From positions 4,588,001 to 4,652,000 of the forward strand of contig CM035356.1 of NCBI GenBank assembly GCA_020137815.1: a stretch of DNA of 64,000 bases, in the 5' to 3' direction. Source of the DNA: Hormiphora californensis (lineage: Eukaryota > Animalia > Ctenophora). Both the position numbers and the translations under genes were made by a program. The notes beneath the pieces are model-generated. The model was not told the origin of the DNA. It saw only the letters and a list, made by a program, of their open reading frames with translations, and searched no databases. Shown here in pieces: positions 567 through 46,372 of the stretch (positions are counted from its first letter, which is position 1; each line of letters opens with the position of its first letter).

Positions 567-3500
567 GAAGTGAGAGCGAGCTGTTCATTATTACTGTGAG
601 TTACACAGATTGCACTGTCTTTCGTAGGTTATTTGTGTGTTAAGTCTGTCTGTCTGTCTGTCTTCTGTCCCTGTCTGTGTGATCTGTCTTCTGTCTTTCT
701 GCCTGGTCTGTCTTCTGTCTGTCGTCTGTCTGACTGTTTGTACTGTCTGTCTGTCTAGTCTGTCCTGTCCTGTCCCTGTCTGTTATATCTGTCTGTCTGT
801 CTGTCTCACCGGTTGATCAGGTATAAAGTGTGGTCCGACCCATACGAAACCATTGCTGCCCAATATCACTGTAGCGTTACAGGCAGAACGGTGGAAAGTT
901 GAACTCCTTACTTTCGTTATTGATATTACACAACTTGGTACCTTGGGTAGAGAATAGTTTATTATGTGGAGATAGTTATTTTTTGAATGGATTTGGGCGG
1001 GGGGGGACAAGTTATCAATACATGTAGTTAAGGTGCTGAATGGCAAAATTTCACACTCGACTGGGGAAACCATCAAAATGGTACGAGCCAATTTCTTCAC
1101 AATGTGTCCAAAGATGGTCCCCAAACAACGACCAAAAACAGTTTTGTCCGTCTACGGTGGTGAGGGCATAGGGCCTATTTCCGATTTTATATGCGATGCG
1201 GACAAGTCTGTGAGGGGGGAATAACAAATCTTAAAGAAAGTTTGGCGGTTTTGGTCCCTGAAAAAAGGATCTACTCCGTGACCGTGGAACCCATCGTGTT
1301 AAGTAAAGAAAAAAGGGAAGGTAGAGCATGTCAAATAATTATCATTAACCCAATTCGCTAATGAAGATGAAAAAAACTAAAAACACATAACTTAGTCTAG
1401 CATAATTCTCGCAACTCCTCGAATCAAAACAATGTAATGGGGGAGTTGTAATATTGTACCCGGAAATGACTCACGCCCCGACCGGAAACCCCGCGTGTTA
1501 GATGGGGTGGGTGTAGAGCATGTGCACAAATTACCCTCAAAAAAAAAAAGAAGACCATACTGCTGAAAGAGAAATCAATTACATAATTGGGAAGGAAGGC
1601 AAAGAAAAAAAGAGATATTTAGTACGTCGACCACTGGCGGTTCTCGAAAATCGGTATCAATTGGAATTTTTTGGACCCGAGCAAAATGAGGCGAGTACCT
1701 GATACGCCTCAGATACCCTACTAAATATCTCCTCGTAAAGAACCCTCCCAGTGTATACCCCTCTTCACCCTCCACAGGATAACCCCTGCAAAAGCAGTGC
1801 TAAACGTAACCCAGAAAGGGAAATAACTACACCTGCGTGACCAACTACTGGGATAAAAAAAGATCTCCTCATGAGAATACCTCCGCAGTTACCCTCTGAC
1901 ACCTGCGCAAAAAGGTGAACCTCTGACGCCTGGGGAAACCCAAGATAGCCCGTGTGGTATACCAGGGCAACAACTTAATAGGCACCCCAAGGGGGGACCG
2001 GTGCCGCAGAGTAACAGCCCTGTAAACCACTGGGCGGGGGCAGTCATAAACCAAACCTCTGATCCTCCCAGAAAAGAGAAAGAAGCCTCATGACGAATGA
2101 GCGCGCGTCCACAAGGAGTACCCCTGACTGGACACGTATTGAAGAATACTAGCCCCGGCACCGTGGAAGACAACCTCCACGGAAATACAACCGCCGCTCT
2201 GACCTTCACATAGAGCCCCTGCTGACCACATCCCAGATAGACCCCTCTGACCCATGGCCCAAAGTGATGCCCTCTGACAACCTAGGGTGTACGGGAGACC
2301 CCCAATGCCCTCGCAGATAGACCCTCTCCCCAAATCTGAAACTCGCCAGATCTCCCTCTGACCCTCGCAGATAGCCCTCTGACCCCTTCCAGATAGCCCT
2401 CTTACACCACTCCCATATACCCCTCTTACCCTCCCAGATACCTCTGCCCTCCCAGATGACCTCTGACACTCCCAATACTCTCTGACCTCTCGCACAATAA
2501 CCTCTGGACCATCCCCGTTACCCTTCAACTGACACCTCCCAGATACCCTCTTACCCTCCCAGCTACCCTCTGACGCTACTAGAATACCCATCCCGACTCC
2601 TCGCATATGACCCTCAATCCCCCGCAGCCTGTCCAATACCCCTCTGGCCTCCCGGATACCCTGATAAACCACCTCTAAAGTGCTTTGGCCTAGCCAGCGT
2701 CCTGGTAGAAGAAAGAAGATCCCCTCTCTGATCCTACCTGATAAAATACCCCTCTGACCCTATATATTCCCTATGACCCTCCTAGACAATTTCCCTTATC
2801 GTCTTCCCGACCCGTAGGCCGTGCTTTGGGAGGACCAGAGGGGTATCTGGAAGGGCTTTAGAGTATCTAATAGGGTCAGAGGGGTATCTGGTAGGACCAA
2901 AGGGGTATCTTCTTCTTCTTCTACGAGGACACTGGCTAGTGCGGAGCACTCTCAGAGGGGTATGCATATAGTATGCTGGAAGTAGGGACTGGGGGAGGTA
3001 TCGTAGTAGGTTATCATAAGTGTTAAATCTTGTGGGGTTTTTGAGGGGTTCAGTAGTCATGGTCGTGGCGGGGGTAAAATACGGACCTTGAGTGGCTGTC
3101 GGGGACGGGTCTATAGGGTATCAATGTAGTTAGGGTCAGCAGGGCTATCTGCTAGGGGGGTCAGAGGGGTATGCTGGGAGGGTCTTATGGGGTCATTCAA
3201 GTAGGGTTCAAAAGTGGATATCTCAGGAGTGTCAGAGGGTATCGTAGAGGTCAGGGGCTATCTGGTAGGGTCATAGGGAGTATCTGGGGGGATGTGGGTG
3301 CAGAGGGTTATCTGTGAGGGGTCAGAGGATCCATACTAATAGAGTCACAGAGGGGGTATCAGTAGGGTCAGAAGATGGAACTTCAATAGAAAGAGGTCAG
3401 AAGGGTATTTGGGACGGTCAGATTGGGTATCTAGTAGGATCAGTGGGGTTTTGAGAGAGGATCAGAGTGCGGTATGCATGGAGGTCGAGGGGTATCTGGG

Positions 3501-6210
3501 AATGGTTCAGAGTTTATCTAGAGGGGAAAATTGGTCAGAGGGGTTATGTGACGGTGCAAGTGGTAGTCAAAAAGGATGTAGTCAAGGGGCTATCTGGGGC
3601 AGTGGTCAGTATGGTTATCTATGAGGGTCAGGAGGTGGGTATCTGGGGACGGTCAGGGGGGATGGGCTTTGGCTTGGAGGATCCAAAAGGGGTATCTTGC
3701 GATGGTCACGGTCTATCTGGGAGGGTCTGGGGGTTGGGTGAAGATCTGTATGGGTGAGAGGGTCTATCGTGAGGAGTGTCAGGATGGGAATCTAGGGCTG
3801 GGAGGATGCCCATTGTTATCTGGGAGTGTCAGAAAGTGGTGTACACTGGGAAGGGAGGTCAGATGAGCCTCTAGTAGGGTCTGAGGGGTATCAGGGGAGT
3901 GGTAGCGCTACATGGGGGGTGGGTTCCGTAAGGTCCAAAACAATCCAATTTTTCAGATTTTTCGAGAAGTGGTGGTCGACTAATTATGTAATTTATCTCA
4001 TCAGCAGATGGTTTTTGAGAGTGTAATTTTGACCTGCTACTACACTAACCCCCACTACCGGGGAACGCGGTTTTTCGTCGGGGTGGCGTCATGTTCGGGT
4101 CCAAACTCCAATTTGTTATTAAGATTTTTGCCGTAATTACGTGATACTAATTATGTATATTATCAGCCTCATTATCGGGGGAAAAGAATGGTTTTAATGA
4201 TTAATTTGACAATGCTCTTACCCCCCTAACACGATGTTTTCCGGTCGGAGTAGCCCTGTTTCCGGGACCCGAAACTCCCAGGAACTCCAATTTTTAAGAT
4301 TTTTTAGTCCCCAACCGTCACAGTACTTGATTGCGCATGCATATAAACAAAAACCGGAATGGAACCCTCTAAGCCCCGTCATCCCGAGCCGGACAAAAAC
4401 TTTTTGGGTTTTTCTGTGGGGGGTGACGACATTTGGGAACACAATTTGTGAAGGGAAACATGCTGGGGTACCAGTTTTATTTGCCCATTCTCGGCGGGAT
4501 GCAAGCCCGCATGCCCCTATACTGGGGATGGGTCCTGGTACTTAGCACTGGCACGTGGCCAACTATATTGTACACACATAATTACAATCCAATTTTACCT
4601 TGATTAGGACTCCCTCGGGTAGTTTCCCATATTTCTCGTGTGTCTCATGTGTAATCTTTACCTCCATCTAAATTACCCACCTCCGACACTTCTGCCTAGT
4701 GGTAATATATCAAGATACAGTCGGACCCCGATTTAGGGACACCCTCGGGTGAAATGCGCTCGTTGCCACTAAACGGGGTGTCTACTAAACGCCTCGTCAC
4801 CTTCGTGGTCATAATAAGGTTAAATTTCCTATTCGGGGTAAACAAAAAAGAATCCTGTACCCTAAATCGGGGTGCCACTAAGTCGGCGGGGGGCCCCTAA
4901 ATCGGGGTTCCGACTGTAATTGGATAGTTATTTACTAATAGCTACTAGTTTTGGTGGGGGGTGGTAGTCGAATTGGTTGATGTTATTGTGATTCACAGAA
5001 ACCCCAACTCAACCAGAACTGTCCAGCGGAGATATGTAACCGAGATATTTAACCAATATTAAACCAAATATTATCCAATAATAACATTAGTAGGTAACTC
5101 ACAAAACAAATAAGATGCTCCGGGCTCTACTGCTAAAATATTCCGCATCATCATCGAGCTCAATCGTTAAGAATTCTTCCGTCCTGCAGCACATTTCCAG
5201 GGAGGTTAGACAGGAGGTGAGAGCTGGAGTGTTGGCGTGCTAAACCCGTGACCTCCCAACAGTCAACCTAGAGGTAACTCAATGTGGGAACATAAACGTG
5301 GAGCAATGAGACCGTAGAAATGTAAAATCGTCTAACAATTCACGCAATATCCCCCGGAGGTTCTGTGTGCTACATGCGGGAGCTATATATAGCATGTATG
5401 TATACTATAGCTATAGTAGCTGCTAAAAACTACCCAGTTTTGTTTATGAAAATCCTTTAGAGCATGGGTAAAGGGGGGGGGGTCATGTAGCTCACCTTCC
5501 ACTTCTTCTGCTGCACCTCAGTCACTCTGCCTACTCAGCTGTCGCCCAACTGGTTTTGTCAGCGCCCTTCACCGCCTGTACCTACTACCTGACACGTCTC
5601 ACAGATACCAGCTTGTCAACCTGAGAGGAGAGAAGAGAGAGGAGAAGAGAGAGAGAGAGAGAGGGAGAGAGGAGAGGGGAGAGGCGAGATAAGAGAGAGA
5701 GATAGAGAGGGGGGAGGAGAGAGAGAGTGAGAGAGAGAGAGAGAGTATAAGATAGACGAGATAGAGCTAAAGCTGGATATAGAAAGAGAGTATATAAAAC
5801 ACAGACATCCCTCAGTACCACGGAGCAACGGGGGTGTTAATTGGCCCTCCTAGCTACAGTAGAGCTGATGATTAGTCATGACCCACTAGGTCCATGGACT
5901 TCATGACGTCAAGATTTTGTGTTAATCCACGTCACTAACCGTTAAAAAAGTCGTGTTCGACAAGTGTCGGTAAAAAACTAACGTATTGGGGGTTAACTAA
6001 GTGTATTATCACCATGGTTACACACCACTTAAACCGGATGGTTACGGGGGTACGGGGGCGCCTTGTTACAATGTACGCGTGGTGTGGCACGGAATGTGTT
6101 GTTTGGGGGTGGCTTCCAGATCCTCGATCCTGCGCTGCGCTATCATAACTCGTGTATCTCTTGTTTGAAGTAAAAAGGGAAGAAAGGGCGCCTGCGACCA
6201 AGTCGCCATC
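61..6210 (-). CDS. EXOSC2: Exosome complex component RRP4, multi-exon; 5' limit approximate, error-rich sequence
   Basis: Manually translated exons: ~5496-5620 VDKLVSV...VGRVTEVQQKKWK; ~5100-5268 NLPGNVL; ~4598-4696 AEV...KYGKLPEGVLIK; ~808-940 FHRSACNATVILGSNGFVWVGP; 349-484 RETIARLVNVIKAL...LFDTII; 61-142 VKELLKSEVMEHIA...stop. These are collinear with Rrp4 motifs. Confidence 0.88.
147..342. repeat. ~33-35 bp intronic minisatellite (GTGAGATTGTTACTTTAACTAGGGAGAGC) filling the last EXOSC2 intron
   Basis: About 6 direct copies between the donor at ~348 and the acceptor at ~143. Confidence 0.9.
950..4560. mobile_element. ~3.6 kb foldback/palindromic element with an internal ACCCCTCTGA-type minisatellite, in an EXOSC2 intron
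   Basis: 1061-1150 mirrors ~4390-4490 and 1460-1545 mirrors ~4010-4100. The minisatellite reads CCCTCTGA in 2200-2800 and TCAGAGGG in 2830-3900. The axis is near 2815. Confidence 0.7.
4718..4916. mobile_element. Tc1/mariner(pogo)-like MITE
   Basis: Inverted ends CAGTCGGACCCCGATTTAG and CTAAATCGGGGTTCCGACTG, with TA on both flanks. Confidence 0.8.
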
Positions 6211-12600: not shown

Positions 12601-15600
12601 TTTCATTTTTTGAAATAAAGAGGAAATCTTTGAATTTTTTGTTTAAACACAAGGATTGTTTCTATTCCAGAATTTAAAACAACGGCATGAGTACCTACTG
12701 TTTGCTATGCATCTCCCAAGACAGGCTACTACATACGCGGCACTACGTTTCAAATAGCCAGACCATGCGTTTCAAATAGTCAGACACTGTTTCACATTGG
12801 CAGGCGTTTCAAATAGCCAGTGGCTACCCTACGCTGTGAGCAAGCGGGCCGTTTTTGGGGGAATTTTTTTCGGGGGGTTGGATGGGGCCACCTTTGCGCT
12901 TGCCAGCGCAGTGACCAGTTAATTATTTAATTTACCGGTTAGCTCCAATAAGATTGAGACCACAACCACCTGCCTTGCTGCTTAACATAAACAGGAAATC
13001 CTTGCTGTCAGCATCGTTAAACCTATCAACTATCTTCATCCTCTTCTTGGCTGTCATTGAGCCATCCAACCTTACGTACTGGTACCTGGTGGATCATGGG
13101 CCGTTATGACGTCATGGGTTTATGACATAGTGTAGGAGGTTATGTGCATGAGTACCTAGAAATATCAGGACATATTTAGTTGATTGTACTGCGACAAGAC
13201 TACGAATACATCCCCCTTCCCCGTTCTCAAATTGAACCCTACCCTCTCATTCGTGCTAGGGTTTCAAACACATCCAGGGTCTGAGTGTAGTTTGATACCA
13301 GTACAAACTTATCGTCCGTCCGAGCCTTCGTAGACGCCAAGATACAATCTAGTACCGCCAGTTTTCCTGGGGAGGGCTTTTTGTAGTTTTACTAGCACGT
13401 GATGCCCATATAATATGGTGTTGAGTATCACGTGATGCCCATATATGGTGTTGAGTATCACGTGGTCACGTGCTGCTCACCTGACAGTGTTGGTTGGATG
13501 TGACGGTTGTTACAGTTACCCAGTAACTCTAATGCACCCTCCCAGCCTGGTGCTCTTTCCTCTGCTTTCTCTCTTATCAGGGCCGGGTCTGGGAAGCAGT
13601 TCGTTATATAACGGGGGGGGGGGGGGGTCTGGAGATCAGTTCATCACCCAGATATTTGCTATTTATTTGTTGTTCGTACTAGGAAAACCTTGTTATGTTC
13701 TAACCCTTCTTCACACAGTCTAGCTAGGCAAGGAAAACCTGCTAGGAAAACCTGCTAAACAACGTATTTGCTATCCTACGATAGTCACTTACAATTACAC
13801 AGCTTCTTAAGGTTTGTGATAGAAGAAAGAGCCCCCACTGCTACCTTCTTCTCCCCCTGATCTCCCGCTCTCATTGCAGCTCTTGTTGCTTTGGAGTTGG
13901 CAAATGATTGATAGATAGCAAGCTGCATGGGTGATGGGCGACAACACACAACCTGTTAGTATAATTGGTATTAGTGTTTTGGTAATCAAAGACTTTATAA
14001 AATTGACTACCTCTCTCCTACCCCTGAACGTCCTTTTTGAATGACCCCATTTCCCTACCTGTTCAATCTTGATGGGTAGATATTTCGAGAGAATTGCTGC
14101 TGTCCTCCGTATAATACACCTGATTAATAATAATAATAATGATTAGGAAACAAGAAATACACGGTTACCATTGTTACATGAATAGCAACCATTCAATAAG
14201 CTACAAATTATCATTTACCTATTTACAATGGCTAGCAGCTCCTTCAAGCACTCCTCCCCCTTTTCCTTGTCCTTATCACTAGCAAAGCTGTCCCGAGATC
14301 TGAGTATGGGATTCTCGAACCTCTTCCTAAACTCAGCTATAGTTCCCAACATGTCTTCATTGACAAAGTGCACCAGACTGTGGGAGGAGGGTTAGTTTTT
14401 ATAAAATCAAATTACAGTGGGGTGTCATTCCTCCTCTTAAATAGCATCAATATGAACGACCAATATGCACGATATGAACGACCAATTTAAAATTAACCGA
14501 GAATGTTATTACATCGAAGGACCAATGTTACTATGATACAGAGGGCAAAATGTAATTTGAAAAAGGTGGAGAAAGTTACCTGAAGTATTCCAGTAGATCG
14601 TTTTGGATTGGGGTACCAGAGAGGAGTACCCTTCTTTTGCAGTCCAGTTTGTTTAGAGCCTGATAGGTCTGGGAGTCACAATTCTTCAGTCGGTGGCCCT
14701 CGTCACATATTATCAGACCGATAGGACCTGATTAATTAGTTAACTAATGAGATGGCCCTCATCACAGATTATCAGACCGATAGGACCTAATTAATTAGTT
14801 AACTAATGGGATGGCCCTCGTCACAGATTATGAGACCGATAGGACCTAATTAAATAGTTAACTAATGAGAACCGATGGGCAATTAGCGAGAAACCAGGGA
14901 ACGGTAGCTGAAGGGGTTTTATAGAGGAAAAAAGGAATTTGAAGAAGAACTAAAGCCCCTCCTCCTGTCACCACCCGAAAACCAGAATGATGTTCATGAA
15001 CTAAACAACAGTGTTGTTGAAATATTCAGAAAACTAGCCTCTAGCACCTTGAAGATGAAGGGGAAGAAAAAGAACAAATTCCAATGGTACGACAGAGAAT
15101 GTGAGAAATCAAAAGAAGCTCTTGAGAAATGCTGCAAAAAGATATCTTCGAAATGTCAAGATAAAAAGATGAGCGAAGAATTTCACTGCCAAAAGCGAAC
15201 CTATCGCAAGCTTACCAGGAGAAAGAAAAACAGTTACAAGTGGAAACTGAACTCCAGAATATCTAACATGAACTCCCGCCAATTAAACTGGTCCGGAGTG
15301 AAGAAGCTCAAACATGAAACATCTGACGAGATTGACTTTGATGTTCTGGACCTACACAACTTCTACCTATTCTTCAAAAAGTTGTATTCCAGCAAGTGTG
15401 ACAAACCGATCTCCGATCATCCTGATCCCTCTGATCCTGAGTTTTACAACACGAGCACTAACCAGCAAGCAGTATTTCTTCTATGCCAACCAATCTCCAA
15501 AACAGAGCTGTCCGATGCCATATCGCGACTAAAAACGAACAAAAGCCCCTCGATAGATCTGATTACTAACGAGATGCTTCGCTCCACATCTAATGTTACT

Positions 15601-18326
15601 AAAGACGTCCTTGTCACGCTTTTCAACGGTTGTCTCACTCACGGGTGCTACCCATGGAACACTTCTATCACTACTGTGATCCACAAAAAAGGGGCGACAG
15701 ACAACCCGGACAACTTTAGGGCGATCACCTTGGGTAGTTGCATAGGCAAGCTCTATAGTAATATCCTACTGACCCGTATGGCAGACTTCAGAAAGTCCGT
15801 GTGCCCTGACACCGCCAATCAGCAAGGATTCGCTAAGGGTGCCCAGACCAGTGATCATGTCCTAACCCTTAAAACCATTCTGGACAAGTATCTACACATA
15901 AAGAAGCGAAGGGTCATCGCCTGCTTTATTGACTATCGTAAAGCATTCGATACGGTATGCAGATCGGCTCTCCTGAAAAAGCTGGGCTCAATGGGCATAT
16001 GTGGCAGCTTCTTCAACTGCATTTCCAACATGTACGAAAACTCATCCACTGCGATCAAACTCTCGGGAATGCTATCCGAATCGTTCTTTGTACGTATCGG
16101 TACGGAACAGGGGCACCCATTAAGCCCCGAGTTCTTTAAGATGTTCGTTGATGAGATGTCAAAGATGCTTAACAATACTAATGGATCCTTCCCTATGCTA
16201 GGCGGAGTCAACATCACCCATCTATTATGGGCCGACGATATTGTGTTATTGGCATTAGACAGAGTTACCATGCTGAATCTCATTAGTGTAGTCGGTGAAT
16301 ATGCGACCAAATGGGAGCTCGAAGTAAACACTAGCAAAACCAAGATCCTAGTGTTCAACTCATCGGGGAGGATCCTAAAGGAAGCTAAAGGCTACTATCT
16401 ACTCGGAAAAGAACTGGAAGCGGTGAAAGAATACACTTACCTGGGAATAACTTTCGTGGCCTCTGGTTCGTTGAAAACCGCCATGAAAAACCTATCACTG
16501 AAAGCCACAAGAGCTATTTCAATACTGAGGAGGACTGTTGACGTTAATGCCCTATCAGCCTGGACAGTTTTCAAGCTGTATGATGCTCTCATTGAGCCCA
16601 TTCTGACCTACGGCTCACCGGTATGGCTTCCATCACTGGAGGTGGCCAAAGCTCTGGACCAGTCAACTAGCTGTGATACTTTTTTCAAGCGTCTAACCTC
16701 TGATACATCTGAGAAAGTGCACCTGAGATTCATTAAGTGGGCGCTTGGTGTCCATAAAAAAGCCACTAATACTGCTTGCTACGGAGACTCGGGCAGAGCT
16801 CCTACATTTATATCTGCGATCAACCGTGGTCTTTCTTACTTTGACCGAGTAATGTCAAAAGAAGCAGATGGTTCAATCCTAGGCCTTGCCGGGGAAGAAC
16901 AGAGGTCTCTGAATCTAAATTGGTACTCCTTCTGGGAAAACATCCGCAACAATTTCACTAGAAATGACCTCGAGAGATTCATGATTAACCACTGGGATCA
17001 CTTGAGGCGGAACCAGTCTAAACTGAGCTATTACAACTCTGTGAAGTCAACGTACGGCTACGAGGAATATCTTAACCTGAGACGTGTAAACAGATGTGAA
17101 ATTAGCAAACTCCGGCTAAGTGCACACGACCTAAGGGTGGAGACTTCCAGATACTCAAACCACCAAACACCAAACTACTGTCGCTTCTGTTGTGATGGAC
17201 AAGCAAAACAGCTGCTCGATCAATTGCCACTTGCGGAACCACTCATCGAAAATGAACAGCATGTCCTAAATGAGTGCCCCACATACGAAGAAATGCGGCA
17301 AACTCTCCCAGACCACCTGCTCTCGGCCATCGCAAGCGGGGAAGCAGCAAACATTTACACCGAAAGGAATGGAAATGCCCTGAACAGGTTCCTCAAAGCG
17401 TCACATACATTACGAGTCAATTATATGGAACCATGAACACTTTTATATTTGCAGTAATCATATGTCAACTATTCCTGGTTAGGGCGTGTGTGGGTCTCGA
17501 TGCTCCCAGCGTCTGCCTGAGTAGAGACCAGTGGTGCTGCCGTGTGTGTGCCTCGTCGCAAATCAATCGGTTTCGCGGAGGGACAGGCAGGCGGGAGCAT
17601 TGCTGATCTGGCAGTCGCTGGGCCCATCTGTGTTTTTTTCCCCCTACTGTGCAGGATGGCACAGCCATGATGTTTTGGCTCTTTTCCTGTTGGTTTTATT
17701 CTATTCTATTCTATTCTATAGAACTGAGTAGTATGGTAATGGTAAATCAGGATGAAACCAAAACCAGAACTCGTTATTTAGGTCACGTGACTGGTTATCA
17801 GCCAATCAGGGACCAGTATTTCCTGATTCGATCAGGATGAAACCAAAACCAACCTTTTAACAGAGCGTTAACGTGAAGACGGAGTGTTTCATAGGACAGA
17901 ATTAGAACCGGATAAACCACTCTTCGACAGGTCACAAAGTCCTCTAAATCCTTGTCAATCTTTGCCTTGGTTCCAGAGTCAATAGCCAGAGGAGTTACTC
18001 TGCCTTTCAACCATTTAAAATACTCGTTGTACCAATTCTATAGACAGAGAGAGATATACACTGTGAAATGATGATGCAGATTTACAGATGAATTTAATTA
18101 TTGGGGGGGGGGGGGGGAGAGAAGGGGGTTTGAGTTTCCTGGACTCACCTTAACTAGTGAAGAAGGGCAGACAATAACAACACGAGATACAGTCGGCTTG
18201 CAGTCTTTCCCCTGTTTTAACAATGTCCACGACAAGGTGACACATTGTAACGTCTTACCCAATCCTGTAGTAGGGAAATAGAGATAGAGAGTGATAGAGA
18301 TGGAGGGAGAGAGAGGGAGATAGAGG

Positions 18327-24970: not shown

Positions 24971-25960
24971 CTAACAGGGGACAGTTGTCTCCCCTGGTAT
25001 ACGTGTATAACAAGACATGTCCTTCAACAGGTTATCTAGAAACTCCTTCTCCGGATATGAACTCTGAGTTCCCTTCCTTGTCACACTCTCACTGGCCACG
25101 GCACAACTCAGCCTCACCTTCTCCCTAAAGGCCAGGAACTTGCCATTACGTGACATGAGGCTAGCCAGAGCGCCAATAAAGGCATCCCCAGCCCCGGTTG
25201 TATCCACTGCAGCTACCTTGTTACAGGGGACATGGGTTACAACCCCTGCCTCATCGAGGTAAACCACACCGTTACCTCCCAGTGTTACCATAGCAACCTG
25301 GCAACCACGGGATTTGAGGACCTTGACAGCACTCTCTGCATCTGACACAGATGTGATGGATTCAATACCAAGTAGCACCTCAGCCTCACTCTCATTGACA
25401 CAGAACACATCAACTAGGGGGTACAGCTCAGTGGGGAGCTCCTTCACAGCTGGGGCAGCGTTGAAGATGGTGTTACAGGCGGGGTTAATTGATTTGATGA
25501 GTTTCAGAGCGGCCAGTGTGGTTTCCAGGGGTATCTCCATCTGGAACACAACAACCCGTGCTGACCCCAACATGTCCTTAGCATCAGTTATATCATCAGG
25601 GGTTAGTTTGTTGTTTGCACCCCCGACAATAACAATACAGTTCTCAGCATTACTGTCAACTGTGATCGTAGCGACTCCACTCGGCCCATCCACCCTTCCC
25701 ACATGACACACATTGATACCAACTGACTTCAAGTTACCCATGTAGTTATCACCAAACGCGTCCGTTCCTAGTTTCCCAACTAGACCGGTTGGGGTGCCCA
25801 GTTTGGCAGCAGCCACCGCCTGATTGGCACCCTTTCCTCCAAATCCAACAGCGAATTGGGTGCCATGGAGGGTTTCACCGGGTTTTGGTAGGGTTGGAAC
25901 ATAACTTATCAGATCTGTCATACATGATCCCACGACAACCACTTGTGGTGAATCTGACAT
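24971..25960 (-). CDS. RBKS: Ribokinase, intronless CDS, 329 aa
   Basis: VVVGSCMTDL, GFGGKGANQAVAAAKLG, NAAPA, VNESEAE, DTTGAGDAFIG (PfkB signatures). Confidence 0.97.
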   Translation of the reverse strand: MSDSPQVVVVGSCMTDLISYVPTLPKPGETLHGTQFAVGFGGKGANQAVAAAKLGTPTGLVGKLGTDAFGDNYMGNLKSVGINVCHVGRVDGPSGVATITVDSNAENCIVIVGGANNKLTPDDITDAKDMLGSARVVVFQMEIPLETTLAALKLIKSINPACNTIFNAAPAVKELPTELYPLVDVFCVNESEAEVLLGIESITSVSDAESAVKVLKSRGCQVAMVTLGGNGVVYLDEAGVVTHVPCNKVAAVDTTGAGDAFIGALASLMSRNGKFLAFREKVRLSCAVASESVTRKGTQSSYPEKEFLDNLLKDMSCYTRIPGETTVPC

Positions 25961-26325
25961 GATGCTAGAAGGTAGAAAAGTTAGTTAGGAAATAAGTAGT
26001 TGATAGTTGAAAAGTTATTTAGGAAAGAAGGAGAAGTCAGAGAAAGAGATCAGCAATTGATTCTAAAGAGCAATTAATAAAAGGATTCGTGTGATAGCGG
26101 TGGGAAATAAAAAGTGTGTAATTAAGAAAGGATAAAATGTAAACAAATTAAAAATGGACCAGTCAACATTAAATCCGGACAGATCATGTGCGTAATCTGT
26201 AAACAACACTGACAGTATGTAGCACACTCATGTCTATAATCAACAGTTTTCACTTTCCAAACTTTCAGTTTACTTTTCGGACTCCGTAGAACTGTTTGTT
26301 TAAGATAAGGGACTTTGAAGGACCT

Positions 26326-29070: not shown

Positions 29071-30655
29071 GCACTTATCGCATATATGAGTGACTATCCA
29101 AGCCGTGTGGTTGCTTTGCAATTTTCTTCTGAAAATTTTTGGTCAAACGTCCAATCGAAAAAAAACATGACCTAATGGCAAAGTGCTCTGTGCTGCAGGT
29201 GTAATAAACTAGTTTTACTACTACATTATTATTAATCCTGATTACAATAACACTGTCAATATTACAACTACAAGTTCATACTTACTACAAGAAAACAGTC
29301 CTCCAAATCCATGCGTTGCACTCTTATGACGTAGCAATTCCCTCTTCCTACAAAAAGCCATAGAGCATTGATCGCATTTAAAGTTCAGTCCCATTCTCTA
29401 CAAGGGGGAAGTTTTGAAAGTGGTGTGGCCAAATTGGTGGGACCAAATAACCTGGGTTAAAACAGGCATATAGGGGAAGTTTTGAAAGTGGTGGGGCCAA
29501 TTTTTTTTGGTCACGTCATATATGAACATGATGAAATGTCTCGACATTTTTCGGTTTTTAGGCCAAAAAGTCGTCGACTTTAAAGTCGGATTTTTTGAAG
29601 TTGTCACCTTCAAATGACCGCGCATGTGAAATTTATCAATTTTGACGAGTACACCACACGTTAACAATTAACATGTGATGTGACACAAGAAGGGGGTGAC
29701 AACTTGAAAAAATCGCGCCCAAAAAACCTGAGGCTCAGGTTGTCATTCGCCATGGTCCGCTCCGTCACCATTTCCATCAGGGGACACCGCCGTTTGTTTA
29801 ATTTATTATTGCCATTGTTAGTGTGTGTACCACTGGGCGCCGTTACGATCTGGGTGGTGGTGGTGGTGGTACAGATATGTTATAGCGTGCCAAACTCTGC
29901 CCGTTAGGGCAGAACGACATTGCAACCTCGTCATAGCGTCTGTCATCGTGTTGTGGTCAGTTGATATCATTGCATTCATATTGTCAGTCAGTCATTGTAC
30001 TTGCAAGACACTTACGCAGCCCCCACGGTTAAAGGTCGGTTGCACTCTTCGCATCTCCGCCCCGTGAGGACATTGCAGTTATCTTGCGAATAAGCAAAAA
30101 GACAAGTTAGGGGGCACATTTTCAAGCTTGGGTGGCTGTGCAGGTAGGCCTGTTCGTTTGTTTGTTACGACGACGGTCCGTCGAGTGGACACTTCTCAAG
30201 CTTGGGTCTGGGGTAGTCTGTCTATAGTAGCTCTAATTAAATTATTGATTGGTAAGGTTTACTCCGGAATCATTATCAATGGTACACAATAGATGAACAG
30301 ACAATACAGACAGATGAACTTACAGCTTTTTGATGTATGATTGGTACCGTGATGTTGTTGATGATCAGATGAGAGGTGTACCATTTCCACTTCCAGTAGA
30401 GATCAAGATGAACAAAAATGATCAAATACAAATAAGAGGTGGGACAGATTGTAGCGTCCCTAGAATGTGTACGATGTTCTATAGGACAAGACGGGTGGGA
30501 CAGATAAGAGTTGTTACACGCGATAAGCGACTTTATTAGTGCACCAAAACACAAGGATTGTCCCTGTACTGGCGTGTTTCACAAAGTCCTCTAAATTGGG
30601 AAGGGCCAGGGTGGGGGAGGTGGGTGGGGTGGAGGGGTGGGTGGTGGCTAGTACA

Positions 30656-32581
30656 AGAAAACGAGCAGGTATTGAGTGCGTTAGAGATCAGATATTAGAG
30701 GTACTGTGTTGAAAGATACAGGAAAGGAGCACTATTTGACAGAATGACTGAACCAGACTAGGCGATGCGGTTGTAAATTGATAGATTTAGGATTAAAGAG
30801 AGACTTAGACGGGTGTATGTCAGTGTAACAGAGCATTCAAAATGAAACAAATATGAAACTGCAAATGTATGAACGATCTGGGTGTTTGGAGGCCTGTTTA
30901 CAGGTGCGCGCTGCCAAAAAAGTTGATTCACTAAAATGGCTCTAACCGCCAAACCACTCAACCGTTTTGGCTGATTCAAAGTTTATCTGGTAGCCGGTAG
31001 GGAGAAAAACGAGCAGGTATTGAGTGCGTTAGAGATCAGATATTAGAGGTACTGTGTTGAAAGATACAGGAAAGGAGCACTATTTGACAGAATGACTGAA
31101 CCAGACTAGGCGATGCGGTTGTAAATTGATAGATTTAGGATTAAAGAGAGACTTAGACGGGTGTATGTCAGTGTAACAGAGCATTCAAAATGAAACAAAT
31201 ATGAAACTGCAAATGTATGAACGATCTGGGTGTTTGGAGGCCTGTTTACAGGTGCGCGCTGCCAAAAAAGTTGATTCACTAAAATGGCTCTAACCGCCAA
31301 ACCACTCAACCGTTTTGGCTGATTCAAAGTTTATCTGGTAGCCGGTAGGGAGAAAAACGAGCAGGTATTGAGTGCGTTAGAGATCAGATATTAGAGGTAC
31401 TGTGTTGAAAGATACAGGAAAGGAGCACTATTTGACAGAATGACTGAACCAGACTAGGCGATGCGGTTGTAAATTGATAGATTTAGGATTAAAGAGAGAC
31501 TTAGACGGGTGTATGTCAGTGTAACAGAGCATTCAAAATGAAACAAATATGAAACTGCAAATGTATGAACGATCTGGGTGTTTGGAGGCCTGTTTACAGG
31601 TGCGCGCTGCCAAAAAAGTTGATTCACTAAAATGGCTCTAACCGCCAAACCACTCAACCGTTTTGGCTGATTCAAAGTTTATCTGGTAGCCGGTAGGGAG
31701 AAAAACGAGCAGGTATTGAGTGCGTTAGAGATCAGATATTAGAGGTACTGTGTTGAAAGATACAGGAAAGGAGCACTATTTGACAGAATGACTGAACCAG
31801 ACTAGGCGATGCGGTTGTAAATTGATAGATTTAGGATTAAAGAGAGACTTAGACGGGTGTATGTCAGTGTAACAGAGCATTCAAAATGAAACAAATATGA
31901 AACTGCAAATGTATGAACGATCTGGGTGTTTGGAGGCCTGTTTACAGGTGCGCGCTGCCAAAAAAGTTGATTCACTAAAATGGCTCTAACCGCCAAACCA
32001 CTCAACCGTTTTGGCTGATTCAAAGTTTATCTGGTAGCCGGTAGGGAGAAAAACGAGCAGGTATTGAGTGCGTTAGAGATAATCAGATTTAGAAGGTACT
32101 GTGTTGAAAGATACAGGAAAGGAGCACTATTTGACAGAATGACTGAACCAGACTAGGCGATGCGGTTGTAAATTGATAGATTTAGGATTAAAGAGAGACT
32201 TAGACGGGTGTATGTCAGTGTAACAGAGCATTCAAAATGAAACAAATATGAAACTGCAAATGTATGAACGATCTGGGTGTTTGGAGGCCTGTTACAGGTG
32301 CGCGCTGCCAAAAAAGTTGATTCACTAAAATGCTCTAACCGCCAACCACTCAACCGTTTTGGCTGATTCAAAGTTTATCTGGTAGCCGGTAGGGAGAAAA
32401 ACGAGCAGGTATTGAGTGCGTTAGAGATCAGATATTAGAGGTACTGTGTTGAAAGATACAGGAAAGGAGCACTATTTGACAGAATGACTGAACCAGACTA
32501 GGCGATGCGGTTGTAAATTGATAGATTTAGGATTAAAGAGAGACTTAGACGGGTGTATGTCAGTGTAACAGAGCATTCAAA
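30656..32581. repeat. 348-bp tandem array, ~5.5 near-identical copies
   Basis: An identical 73-aa ORF recurs at 30758, 31106, 31454 and 31802 (period 348). The last unit is cut at ...AGCATTCAAA. Confidence 0.97.
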
Positions 32582-32615
32582 CTTTTCAACACTACTTTAA
32601 ACAAATTAATTTGAG
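32576..32615 (+). other. Genomic copy of the ctenophore trans-spliced leader (SL) exon, not followed by GT
   Basis: TTCAAACTTTTCAACACTACTTTAAACAAATTAATTTGAG matches, from memory, the Pleurobrachia/Hormiphora SL. It is followed by GCTTGG... and an ATG 29 nt later. Confidence 0.85.
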
Positions 32616-32644
32616 GCTTGGCCTCTAGGTCCCGATGAATTAGC

Positions 32645-33688
32645 ATGAGTTTGAGGAACGGTACCCGGGACGCTGTCCATGACCTTACCAGAACGTTGGA
32701 GGCGCTAGGAAACTCCACGACGGAAACAGTTGAAGTATCCCGTGAGGCATTGGAGGAGCTGATAAACTCCTTCTCCAGGCTTGATGAATCTGTGAGTAAC
32801 CACCCCCCTGCCCCCCTCTGGTCATCAGTTGAACTTCCCAAATCGGCTGATATTGCTGGCGTTGCCCTTCACATGGCATCTATTATCCCCCTGATGCGGC
32901 CGACCACTTCCAACTCTTGAGGAAACTTTTGCTCGCGGAAGGTCCAGTCGTTTCAGCTGGTATAGTGAGACGGGGGTCAACTATGGTTGGAATGATGTAC
33001 ACCTTGTGGCTAAATCTGTACCTGGGGAGATCATGTCCATCATGAACAGGGTGAACCAGTTAACTGGACTCGCCTTCAACGGTTGCCTTGTCATCCGGTA
33101 TTTGGGGGTACCGGGCCACCCTGACGGTCTTGGGCTGCACCAAGACACCGAAAAGATGAATGTGCCAGGCCATCCGGTCGTGTCGGTTTCTGTAGGTGCC
33201 CCACGTACCCTACAGTTCCGAAAGGGGAATAACTGGTCCAGCGAACTTGCTGGTTCAGTAGTTATGCAGAGTGGTGACTCACTGCTGTTTAAACCCGATC
33301 AGAAGGGGCTGTTCCATGGGGTTGTTCACGCAGAAGGGAGACGCTATGTTCTATCATTCAGGAAGGTCATTGACCCATCGACATCATCAGATCAGACTGG
33401 AAGAGTTGAGAGGCCACCGGTAACTTTCCAGGGGACCACAACCCCCATTGTATTCGATGGAAATGTCTCGCCCCGCTCGAGCCTCCTCAGAGCGGTCAGA
33501 GCTACCAGGGGAAACCTTGTCTCACGGTTTTCTGCCAGGCCCACAGCAGCATCGACCTCCTTGCCGGTCTCTGTTTCTTCTTCTTCATCCGCTGCAGAGA
33601 ATCACAACACCTCCCTTGCACAACCATCCTCCTCCACTCCTCGGCCTGATGCTCCTCCCCGCTCTTCGACTACTCTTTGGCCTCCTAC
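32645..33688 (+). CDS. AlkB/ALKBH2-3-like 2OG-Fe(II) dioxygenase with a Ser/Pro-rich tail; frameshift near 32890; runs into the gap; probable retroelement ORF1 or retrocopy
   Basis: SWYSETGVNYGW, FNGCLVIRY, GLHQDTE (HxD), VVSVSVGAPRTLQFR, FHGV (distal His) and RYVLSFR (2OG-binding Arg pair). No introns. Confidence 0.88.
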
Positions 33689-33788
33689 NNNNNNNNNNNN
33701 NNNNNNNNNNNNNNNNNNNNNNNNNNNNNNNNNNNNNNNNNNNNNNNNNNNNNNNNNNNNNNNNNNNNNNNNNNNNNNNNNNNNNNNN
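33689..33788. other. Assembly gap (100 N, true size unknown)
   Basis: Run of N. The 3' part of IDH2 and the rest of the AlkB element are both missing here. Confidence 0.99.
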
Positions 33789-34724
33789 CACGTGCTCGTG
33801 ATCTCCACAAGATGAACAATTCAAGTATACCGTCATGAGACGTGTATAACAAACGTACCCATAATATTACTAAATTTAAATACATGAGCACACTTCCTCT
33901 CAGTAAACTATCTTGAGCATTATAAGCACACTACTGAGTCACAGCACTAACTTTAACAGTCAATACCCAATCAGTCGTATATAGTCATCATATCTCAACA
34001 CCCACTCTGCACTCAATCATCATAAGATTAGGACACATTAACACTACCTTGCATCAACACTGCATTATCAGTGCATGCGTACCACCCTAGACCACCCAGT
34101 ACCTACCTCAGTAGTATTGAACATCTCCCCCCGCCTCTCTCAGCCACCCAGTACCTACCTCAGTAGTATTACTAGTATTGAATATCTCCCCCCGCCCCTC
34201 TCAGCCACCCAGTACCTACCTCAGTAGTATTACTAGTATTGAATATCTCCCCCCGCCCCTCTCAGCCACCCAGTACCTACCTCAGTAGTATTGAACATCT
34301 CCCCCCGCCTCTCTCAGCCACCCAGTACCTACCTCAGTAGTATTACTAGTATTGAATATCTCCCCCCGCCCCTCTCAGCCACCCAGTACCTACTCAGTAG
34401 TATTGAATATCTCCCCCGCCCTCTTCAGCCACCCAGTACCTACCCAGTAGTATTACTAGTATTGAATATCTCCCCCCGCCCCTCTCAGCCACCCAGTACC
34501 TACCTCAGTAGTATTGAACATGCCCATTCCACACCCACCACGTCCACCCAGTACCTACCTCAGTAGTATTGAACATGCCCATTCCACACCCACCACGTCC
34601 ACCCAGTACCTACCTCAGTAGTGTTGAACATGCCCATTCCACACCCACCACGTCCACCCAGTACCTACCTCAGTAGTGTTGAACATGCCCATTCACACCC
34701 ACCACGTCCACCCAGTACCTACCT

Positions 34725-46372
<11,648 letters not shown>

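Follow-up and report, generated by a model that had tools for sequence, protein, structure and literature searches.

Why should a copy of a spliced leader (SL), which host mRNAs receive by trans-splicing, stand in genomic DNA directly ahead of a protein-coding sequence? The question is raised by a stretch of 64,000 nucleotides from the ctenophore Hormiphora californensis (assembly GCA_020137815.1, contig CM035356.1, positions 4,588,001 to 4,652,000; hereafter the window, with positions counted from its first letter), in which such a copy precedes an open reading frame (ORF) for an AlkB-type protein. We interpret this locus as the 5' end of a long interspersed nuclear element (LINE) copy that was made from a trans-spliced RNA, with trans-splicing renewed in each cycle of transposition. 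As a whole this explanation is probable; two of its parts, the identity of the element as a LINE and its origin from trans-spliced RNA, are well supported and very likely correct.

The junction itself is abrupt. The unit of a 348-bp tandem array continues past the letters TTCAAA in five copies, whereas the sixth is broken off at 32576 by a 40-nt stretch that has only TTCAAA in common with the unit. These 40 nt (32576-32615) are identical to the last 40 nt of the 44-nt H. californensis SL printed in the accessible text of PMC8527503, and to the last 40 nt of the 43-nt exon in an SL RNA gene array (locus L022, described below); because the L022 exon is 43 nt long, we count the window copy as lacking its first 3 nt. 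With up to 20% mismatch allowed, nothing else in the window resembles the SL. Behind the SL come GC, then 29 nt and then an ATG at 32645, and the flanking zinc-finger and IDH genes both lie on the minus strand, opposite to the ORF. On the abrupt replacement with its shared TTCAAA, on what follows the SL, on the opposite strand and on the match to a ctenophore SL without its first bases, the initial annotation had read the locus correctly. The window copy as an SL RNA gene was ruled out, given GC behind the SL versus GTAAG in the true gene, again in agreement with that annotation. An overlap of at least 6 nt at the junction is reached by 0.15-0.9% of random joins.

The reading frame behind the SL was described in advance as an intronless ORF of the AlkB family. 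An AlkB domain (PF13532) is indeed present, and no intron interrupts the 1044 bases that can be seen; the frame, however, is broken in the window, and the relatives described below, which carry AlkB together with an SGNH esterase, show that this is not a plain AlkB gene. Translation from the ATG at 32645 stops after 91 codons, at 32918-20, and the AlkB domain lies in another frame. Contigs of two sequencing runs (X2 and X5) carry five extra letters at 32886-32916 with which a single frame is kept, and relatives read through this region. The neighbouring stretch is rich in errors: the last full 348-bp unit has 8 gap positions, compared to 0 in the three preceding units. Because of both observations the frame break (about 32886-32916) is likely an assembly error, and the ORF is probably open in reality; a real lesion in the window copy is the alternative. 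Among solved structures the AlkB domain is nearest to human ALKBH2, with H-Q-D aligned to the H-R-D of ALKBH2, and a distal His and Arg were seen by inspection. As judged from the alignment, the predicted domain has the ligand set of a 2-oxoglutarate (2OG)-Fe(II) dioxygenase (H-x-D ... H, distal Arg).

The nearest named proteins are gene models of Pleurobrachia bachei (86%), among them P0001, which makes the host a probable pleurobrachiid ctenophore. A search for longer fused forms of P0001 returned only P0003 (675 aa), which is 76% identical to P0001 over 84% of P0001 and has the same starting Met. P0003 consists of the AlkB domain, a proline-rich linker and an SGNH esterase (Lipase_GDSL_2), in which inspection found G-D-S and G-T-N-D and no Asp at the D-x-x-H position. 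Compared with representatives of 50%-identity clusters, P0003 gave 397 matches (E 0.001); among the matches listed (150 of 397), 91 relatives of at least 400 aa were scanned, and 53 of them have both AlkB and esterase. Atlas neighbours likewise combine AlkB with SGNH and, where a taxon is recorded (few members), are mostly from Ctenophora. One protein extends further: P0275, which has 1443 aa and falls into the same 90% cluster as a protein from Mnemiopsis, has the domain order AlkB-AlkB-SGNH-APE-RT, i.e., it continues into an apurinic/apyrimidinic endonuclease (APE) and a reverse transcriptase (RT), and is evidently a gene model joining ORF1 to ORF2. Both of its ORF1 domains match P0003, distantly (24-31%; 28%, E 4e-9 pairwise), and from motifs we take it to be CR1-like. 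Because P0003 combines AlkB with an esterase and P0275 continues into APE and RT, the window ORF is a likely LINE ORF1, as the proposal of a retroelement-type ORF had it. No DNA locus for the AlkB-esterase relatives was found in the viral, metagenome or genome contigs searched. Two further features of the family were observed. Some relatives (P0157, P0183, P0207, P0225, P0236) have two AlkB domains ahead of the esterase, and residues 10-29 of P0001 are a piece of the interior of the AlkB region placed ahead of the true start, an arrangement that suggests tandem or nested copies.

What follows the SL elsewhere was examined in metagenome contigs, where an exact 29-nt match to the SL returned 35 matches at 34 loci; viral and genome contigs gave none. 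Sorting by follower, which had been put forward as a check, separated four classes. Most loci (23) are mRNA-like, with the SL no more than 7 nt from the contig end and then apparent host genes, as judged by translation (Pfam was run on five of them, three with matches). One, L022, is a true SL RNA gene array with a 778-bp tandem unit, in which the SL is followed by GTAAG and SL genes alternate with 5S rRNA. In seven loci (L003, L007, L008, L015, L020, L021 and L034) the SL is followed by an ORF1 and an APE-type ORF2, with the RT reached in four, and in the remaining three (L016, L031 and L032) by an unnamed ORF1-like ORF. The Pfam score of L003 is below the cut-off, but it is 60-81% identical to other SL-headed LINEs. 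Six of the seven LINEs belong together, with ORF2s that are 56-67% alike in the four long members; L020 and P0275 are distant from this group, and between unrelated SL-headed families the ORF2s are about 24-34% alike. We take L007, L008 and L015 to be L2-like from motifs. The ORF1s of the SL-headed loci have no similarity to the window ORF.

The heads of these elements are uniform on one side and variable on the other: over 35-43 nt they are identical to the SL gene exon, the match then ending abruptly, and nine of the ten heads are 5'-truncated. Among the eight loci with at least 17 nt of unrelated upstream DNA there are five LINEs, two ORF1-like loci, one SL gene and no host gene, and the upstream flanks of the SL-headed loci match neither one another nor the DNA upstream of the SL gene. 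Flank, SL and LINE lie within one long contig in L003, L007, L020 and L021, and L008 and L015 are complete from the SL through a TAT/ATT-repeat tail to the flank. Target-site duplications were readable for no locus, the flanks of L008, L015 and L032 being short or collapsed. All seven loci of library Ga0233438 are LINE or ORF1-like, which suggests that it is a DNA library; the other four SL matches in the source library of L020 are mRNA-like. We take SL-headed LINE 5' ends to be a real, general feature in ctenophores. The expectation that copies would start at the SL with unrelated flanks held for several other LINE families; for the window family it has only three contigs to show, records 11 and 13 of X12 and record 30 of X5, in which other letters come first and the match sets in part-way through the SL.

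Two side observations concern the same loci. In L032 and L016 an SL head is followed by a single coiled-coil ORF1-like ORF and a short repeat tail (AAT in L032) with no ORF2, which makes them candidate ORF1-only non-autonomous elements. Furthermore, an upstream ORF (uORF) of 1-4 codons precedes ORF1 in all five SL-headed elements with a short untranslated region (UTR), namely the window, L016, L020, L031 and L032, compared to one of 23 host-type mRNAs and none of six long-UTR LINEs, the elements not being fully independent; such a uORF may damp translation of ORF1.

The window family was followed in sequencing runs. The join of SL and UTR seen in the window recurs in other samples: X5 contigs contain it with 0 mismatches, and it is also present in contigs of X12, from a second organism. 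In X2 (record 22) the SL is joined 13 nt further in, right behind the AG at 32627-28, with 30 and 51 letters on the two sides of the join, and two other contigs, record 8 of X1 and record 31 of X5, have their first letter precisely at 32627, the point where the two forms would merge. Another joint into the SL, from 32377 of the same 348-bp repeat, was found in X2, and dozens of contigs exit the SL on either side into mixed sequence. Several overlapping variant contigs run along the window ORF in X5. Depths on the main ORF contigs were 139 in X2, about 2200-3600 in X5 and about 285-350 in X12, and were not used as copy numbers. Among the contigs listed for X1, X2, X5 and X12, none passes from the repeat unit to the SL at the window junction (32576); as contigs drop rare variants, this does not show that the junction is absent. 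In X18, taken as RNA by guess, contigs fell on the SL only and are uninformative on expression. In addition, deep contigs of X2 and X5 are about 90% alike to the window over the SL, UTR and first codons (32589-32657) and then leave for other sequence; they may stem from a sister family, or a non-autonomous one, that has this head in common with the window element.

The mechanism that we propose rests on what is established for LINEs and on three observations: the SL copies end exactly at the exon boundary, their 5' ends are clipped to varying extents, and 6 nt overlap at the junction in the window. RNA of the element would be trans-spliced to the host SL like a host mRNA. During target-primed reverse transcription, synthesis would halt 0-8 nt short of the cap, and the end of the cDNA would anneal to the target through a few shared bases, six in this case, leading to insertion into the 348-bp repeat. 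The AlkB domain is predicted to strip methyl marks or damage from the RNA or cDNA of the element. The least secure step is that trans-splicing would remake the 5' end in each cycle: with the end of the integrated SL as acceptor the window form would result, and with a YAG further in, the 13-nt shorter form. If the 5' end is remade in this way, no dedicated 5' promoter must survive copying. No sense-strand host gene is evident upstream of the SL copy in the window, and read-through at this copy is therefore without a visible source.

The choice of acceptor bears most directly on this last step. The last three letters of the SL are GAG, which is rare and weak as a splice acceptor, and the two host IDH acceptors that could be read clearly are both CAG. 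The DNA copies also retain better candidates downstream: in four L2-like loci (L003, L007, L008 and L034) a conserved, acceptor-like GGTGTTTTAG stands directly before the G-ATG of ORF1, behind a T-rich leader of 145-162 nt; three other loci have TTTYAG directly behind the SL; and the window has YAG at +13 and +28. (In L020 and L032 the TTTCAG that follows the SL might be read as a relic of an SL start, but the match ends after 5 nt, and this reading was dropped.) Because constant re-splicing should tend to remove such sites, their persistence counts against it. Self-renewal at the terminal AG of the SL itself is plausible but less likely than not. The kept YAG sites would be explained as well by a two-step scheme, with genomic RNA carrying a distal SL and mRNA spliced at the inner site, and by capture of the SL once or rarely, after which each copy would inherit it as part of the element, where it would serve as internal promoter or enhancer of translation, and splicing at internal YAG sites would only make the ORF1 mRNA. 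RNA-gene heads act similarly in SINEs (short interspersed nuclear elements), and the SL exon of Ascaris serves as a promoter element. According to the accessible text of PMC3315495, the genomic RNA of C. elegans Cer1 escapes SL1 splicing and its subgenomic RNA is spliced. This, like the poverty of GAG as an acceptor, speaks for capture. A single capture does not readily account for unrelated families (with ORF2s as far apart as stated above) that all have an exact SL head up to an abrupt break with diverged UTRs behind it, and the 5'-truncated heads would be dead ends under inheritance. Moreover, a DNA form shorter by 13 nt, such as the one observed, is in keeping with repeated splicing and integration. 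We therefore regard capture followed by inheritance as unlikely, though it is the alternative to be taken most seriously.

Several points weigh against the explanation of the window as a LINE copy with a recurrently trans-spliced 5' end. The ORF2, tail and target duplication of the window copy are unseen, as they would fall in an assembly gap; neither APE nor RT is present in any of the 91 scanned relatives of P0003, and the putative link from ORF1 to ORF2 rests on one distant gene model, P0275. Runs X1, X2, X5 and X12 are DNA by guess only, though their contigs contain non-coding repeat, and no short SL-UTR contig reaches, on both sides of the join, the 31 letters that count as a bridge. Part of the identity of the heads follows from the requirement of 29 exact nt, and metagenomes of low coverage are more apt to show multicopy elements than single host retrocopies. 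The 13-nt shorter form, which suggests recurrent splicing and re-integration, could instead be a deletion between two AGG triplets. To these must be added the weak GAG acceptor, the persisting YAG sites and a P. bachei model, P0002, in which a Penelope RT follows the ORF1 linker in frame; no other model hints at the unit of RT and GIY-YIG that marks Penelope-like elements. This last model raises the possibility that the element is Penelope-like, of the esterase-bearing Neptune type, rather than an APE LINE, and esterases are known in Penelope-like elements according to the accessible text of PMC3905857. However, the matching family (P0007) has just one ORF, of about 875 aa, and lacks both esterase and AlkB, and another model (P0070) joins the same RT to an unrelated start, so that P0002 is probably a gene-model chimera or a nested insertion; P0275, in turn, links the AlkB-esterase type of ORF1 to APE-RT. 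A Penelope-like identity is accordingly given very little weight.

If an ordinary AlkB-esterase gene of the host had given rise to a processed retrocopy, in the manner of the SL-relic genes of dinoflagellates, an SL would likewise stand ahead of an intronless ORF; the distance from SL to ATG, 29 nt in the window, falls within the 1-64 nt of host-type mRNAs, and no ORF2 is seen in the window. P0003 is matched by 397 clusters, far more than would be expected of a host gene family, one relative runs on into APE-RT, the ORF is covered by several overlapping variants in X5, and there is no host retrocopy among the eight loci with long flanks, all of which makes this origin very improbable. That the SL-ORF join is an assembly chimera or cDNA contamination might be suspected because the join lies among many errors, with a contig end 1.1 kb away, and because the runs were only guessed to be DNA. 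Yet the join between SL and UTR recurs in a second sample and a second organism, in runs whose contigs also include non-coding repeat, and four loci hold flank, SL and LINE in one piece; an artefact of this kind is hardly credible. A misjoin of array to SL at the window locus alone is a separate matter, not likely in our view, and would leave the nature of the element unchanged. Site-specific insertion into an SL RNA gene is known for CRE, SLACS, CZAR and NeSL elements (accessible text of PMC3636483 and PMC8869645) and would leave an SL exon before the ORF. Here the upstream repeat is unrelated to the SL gene unit, the flanks differ and none is the upstream region of an SL gene, the heads are variably truncated, and the ORF2s found are of APE type, not restriction-like. 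To judge by these sequences, such insertion is already contradicted for the loci examined and has almost no chance of explaining the window.

The features are collected in Table 1. The 348-bp repeat has no similarity to the repeat of the SL gene array; it is present in very many contigs of X2, X5 and X12 and in none of X18. In contigs, tandem units of other lengths related to 30646-32581 restart at the same end (32398), and contigs of the repeat branch at 32385 into CCTAAC-like repeats; a Helentron-type origin of the repeat is our guess. To the right of the gap, self-BLAST of the window found neither repeat unit nor element sequence. Exons of IDH were placed on the minus strand at 44437, 43178, about 37890 and 34880, and a motif search of the window did not find its remaining (second) half; for this reason the gap may be long, and the genomic setting of the element is uncertain. 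An Rfam scan of 29500-35200 returned no match.

Table 1. Features of the SL-headed locus (window positions) and of the SL gene array in contig L022 (positions in that contig)
Feature	Position	Strand	Remarks
348-bp tandem array, 5.5 copies	30658..32581	+	Tandem Repeats Finder (TRF); self-BLAST; high-copy repeat, apparent insertion target
5' junction microhomology, 6 nt common to repeat unit and SL (TTCAAA)	32576..32581	+	
SL copy, 40 nt, without first 3 nt of the 43-nt SL exon, no GT behind	32576..32615	+	
29-nt 5' UTR	32616..32644	+	two YAG sites (AG at 32627-28 and 32642-43); 2-codon uORF 32635-32643
Likely LINE ORF1, 5' part	32645..33688	+	N-terminal helix region, AlkB domain, Pro/Ser linker; ends at gap
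AlkB-type 2OG-Fe(II) oxygenase domain	32949..33335	+	Pfam PF13532 E 1.5e-16; PDB E 4.5e-7
100-N assembly gap	33689..33788	.	hides esterase, any ORF2, 3' tail, any target-site duplication
L022 SL RNA/5S gene array	263-381, 692-735, 1041-1159, 1470-1513		

Other features were noted in the window. An 842-aa LINE ORF2 fragment with RT (PF00078) lies at 14908-17433 on the plus strand; it is distant from the SL-headed group, and no SL match lies near it. On the minus strand, a single-exon gene of the ribokinase family (PfkB) occupies 24974-25984, and an ORF at 41895-42464, inside an IDH intron, resembles the start of a LINE endonuclease and has no Pfam match. The sequence inside IDH from about 36000 to 42400 is garbled and rich in homopolymers, resembling unpolished reads, and features there are unreliable.

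The closest known parallel is found in dinoflagellates, whose DinoSL/DinoRL SL-relic retrogenes are read, in the accessible text of PMC12014239 and PMC3942190, as reverse-transcribed trans-spliced mRNA with traceable repeated rounds. In both cases the SL has been copied into DNA and an intronless ORF follows it. In dinoflagellates host genes are the passengers, whereas at the window it is very likely a retrotransposon's own RNA, in an animal host; and a new SL there splices inside the old one to leave tandem relics, which were found neither in the 33 non-gene loci nor in the window. As a LINE ORF1, the window family resembles the type IV ORF1 of CR1, L2 and RTEX LINEs, e.g., ZfL2-1, in its C-terminal SGNH esterase (accessible text of PMC3905857 and PMC4120745; esterase ORF1s are reported by the former for CR1, RTEX and Penelope-like elements) and, in one relative (P0275), in having the esterase ahead of an APE-RT ORF2. 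It differs from them by the AlkB domain before the esterase and the host SL as the 5' end. An AlkB-type oxygenase also occurs in Gypsy elements of the orchid Phalaenopsis, where it demethylates N6-methyladenosine (m6A) in RNA in vitro (accessible text of PMC9289625); those are long terminal repeat (LTR) elements with an ALKBH5-like protein in a separate ORF, in contrast to the predicted non-LTR ORF1 fusion nearest to ALKBH2 described here. With CRE1/2, SLACS, CZAR and NeSL-1, which insert into SL RNA genes by means of a restriction-like endonuclease (PMC3636483 and PMC8869645), the window element shares the position of a non-LTR element adjoining an SL exon in DNA, but in the present case the mobile unit itself begins with the SL, the sites are dispersed and the elements are of APE type. 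The RNA of C. elegans Cer1 is SL trans-spliced, as we propose for the present element; Cer1, unlike it, is an LTR element whose full-length RNA is not trans-spliced and whose SL is not copied into DNA (PMC3315495, accessible text). Word searches found no mention of AlkB or oxygenase in the accessible text of PMC4120745 and none of AlkB in that of PMC8557442, PMC5408684 and PMC12477816, and the accessible text of PMC5240408 and PMC4233971 holds nothing on SL-headed elements. In the literature searched, mostly open-access and without Repbase or supplements, no report of SL-headed LINEs in animals or of AlkB-esterase ORF1s was found. Repbase may list AlkB in some cnidarian CR1 ORF1s, and SL heads may already be described there.

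LINE copies normally lose their 5' promoter by truncation. A constant 5' end supplied by the host would be another way round this loss, and would tie the survival of the transposon to trans-splicing. We advance one wider proposition tentatively, with more doubt than confidence: several unrelated LINE families of ctenophores may have given the making of their 5' ends over to host trans-splicing, with the end of the integrated SL as acceptor. Such elements would be promoterless; any read-through transcript would yield a capped full-length RNA, clipped copies would be healed, a large share of the hundreds of SL copies in ctenophore genomes would stem from these elements, and one large family among them would have added an AlkB demethylase to the protein that coats its RNA. 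The latter family, with its AlkB and esterase ORF1, is a candidate for an animal LINE with its own predicted nucleic-acid demethylase. SL heads also show precisely where full-length LINEs begin and keep a record of splice-site use. Genomic SL copies number 718 in H. californensis and, for a related motif, 491 in M. leidyi, in a passage of PMC8527503 that draws no link to transposons. SL-headed LINEs may account for many of these scattered copies in ctenophores, and they warn against taking every genomic SL match for an SL RNA gene.

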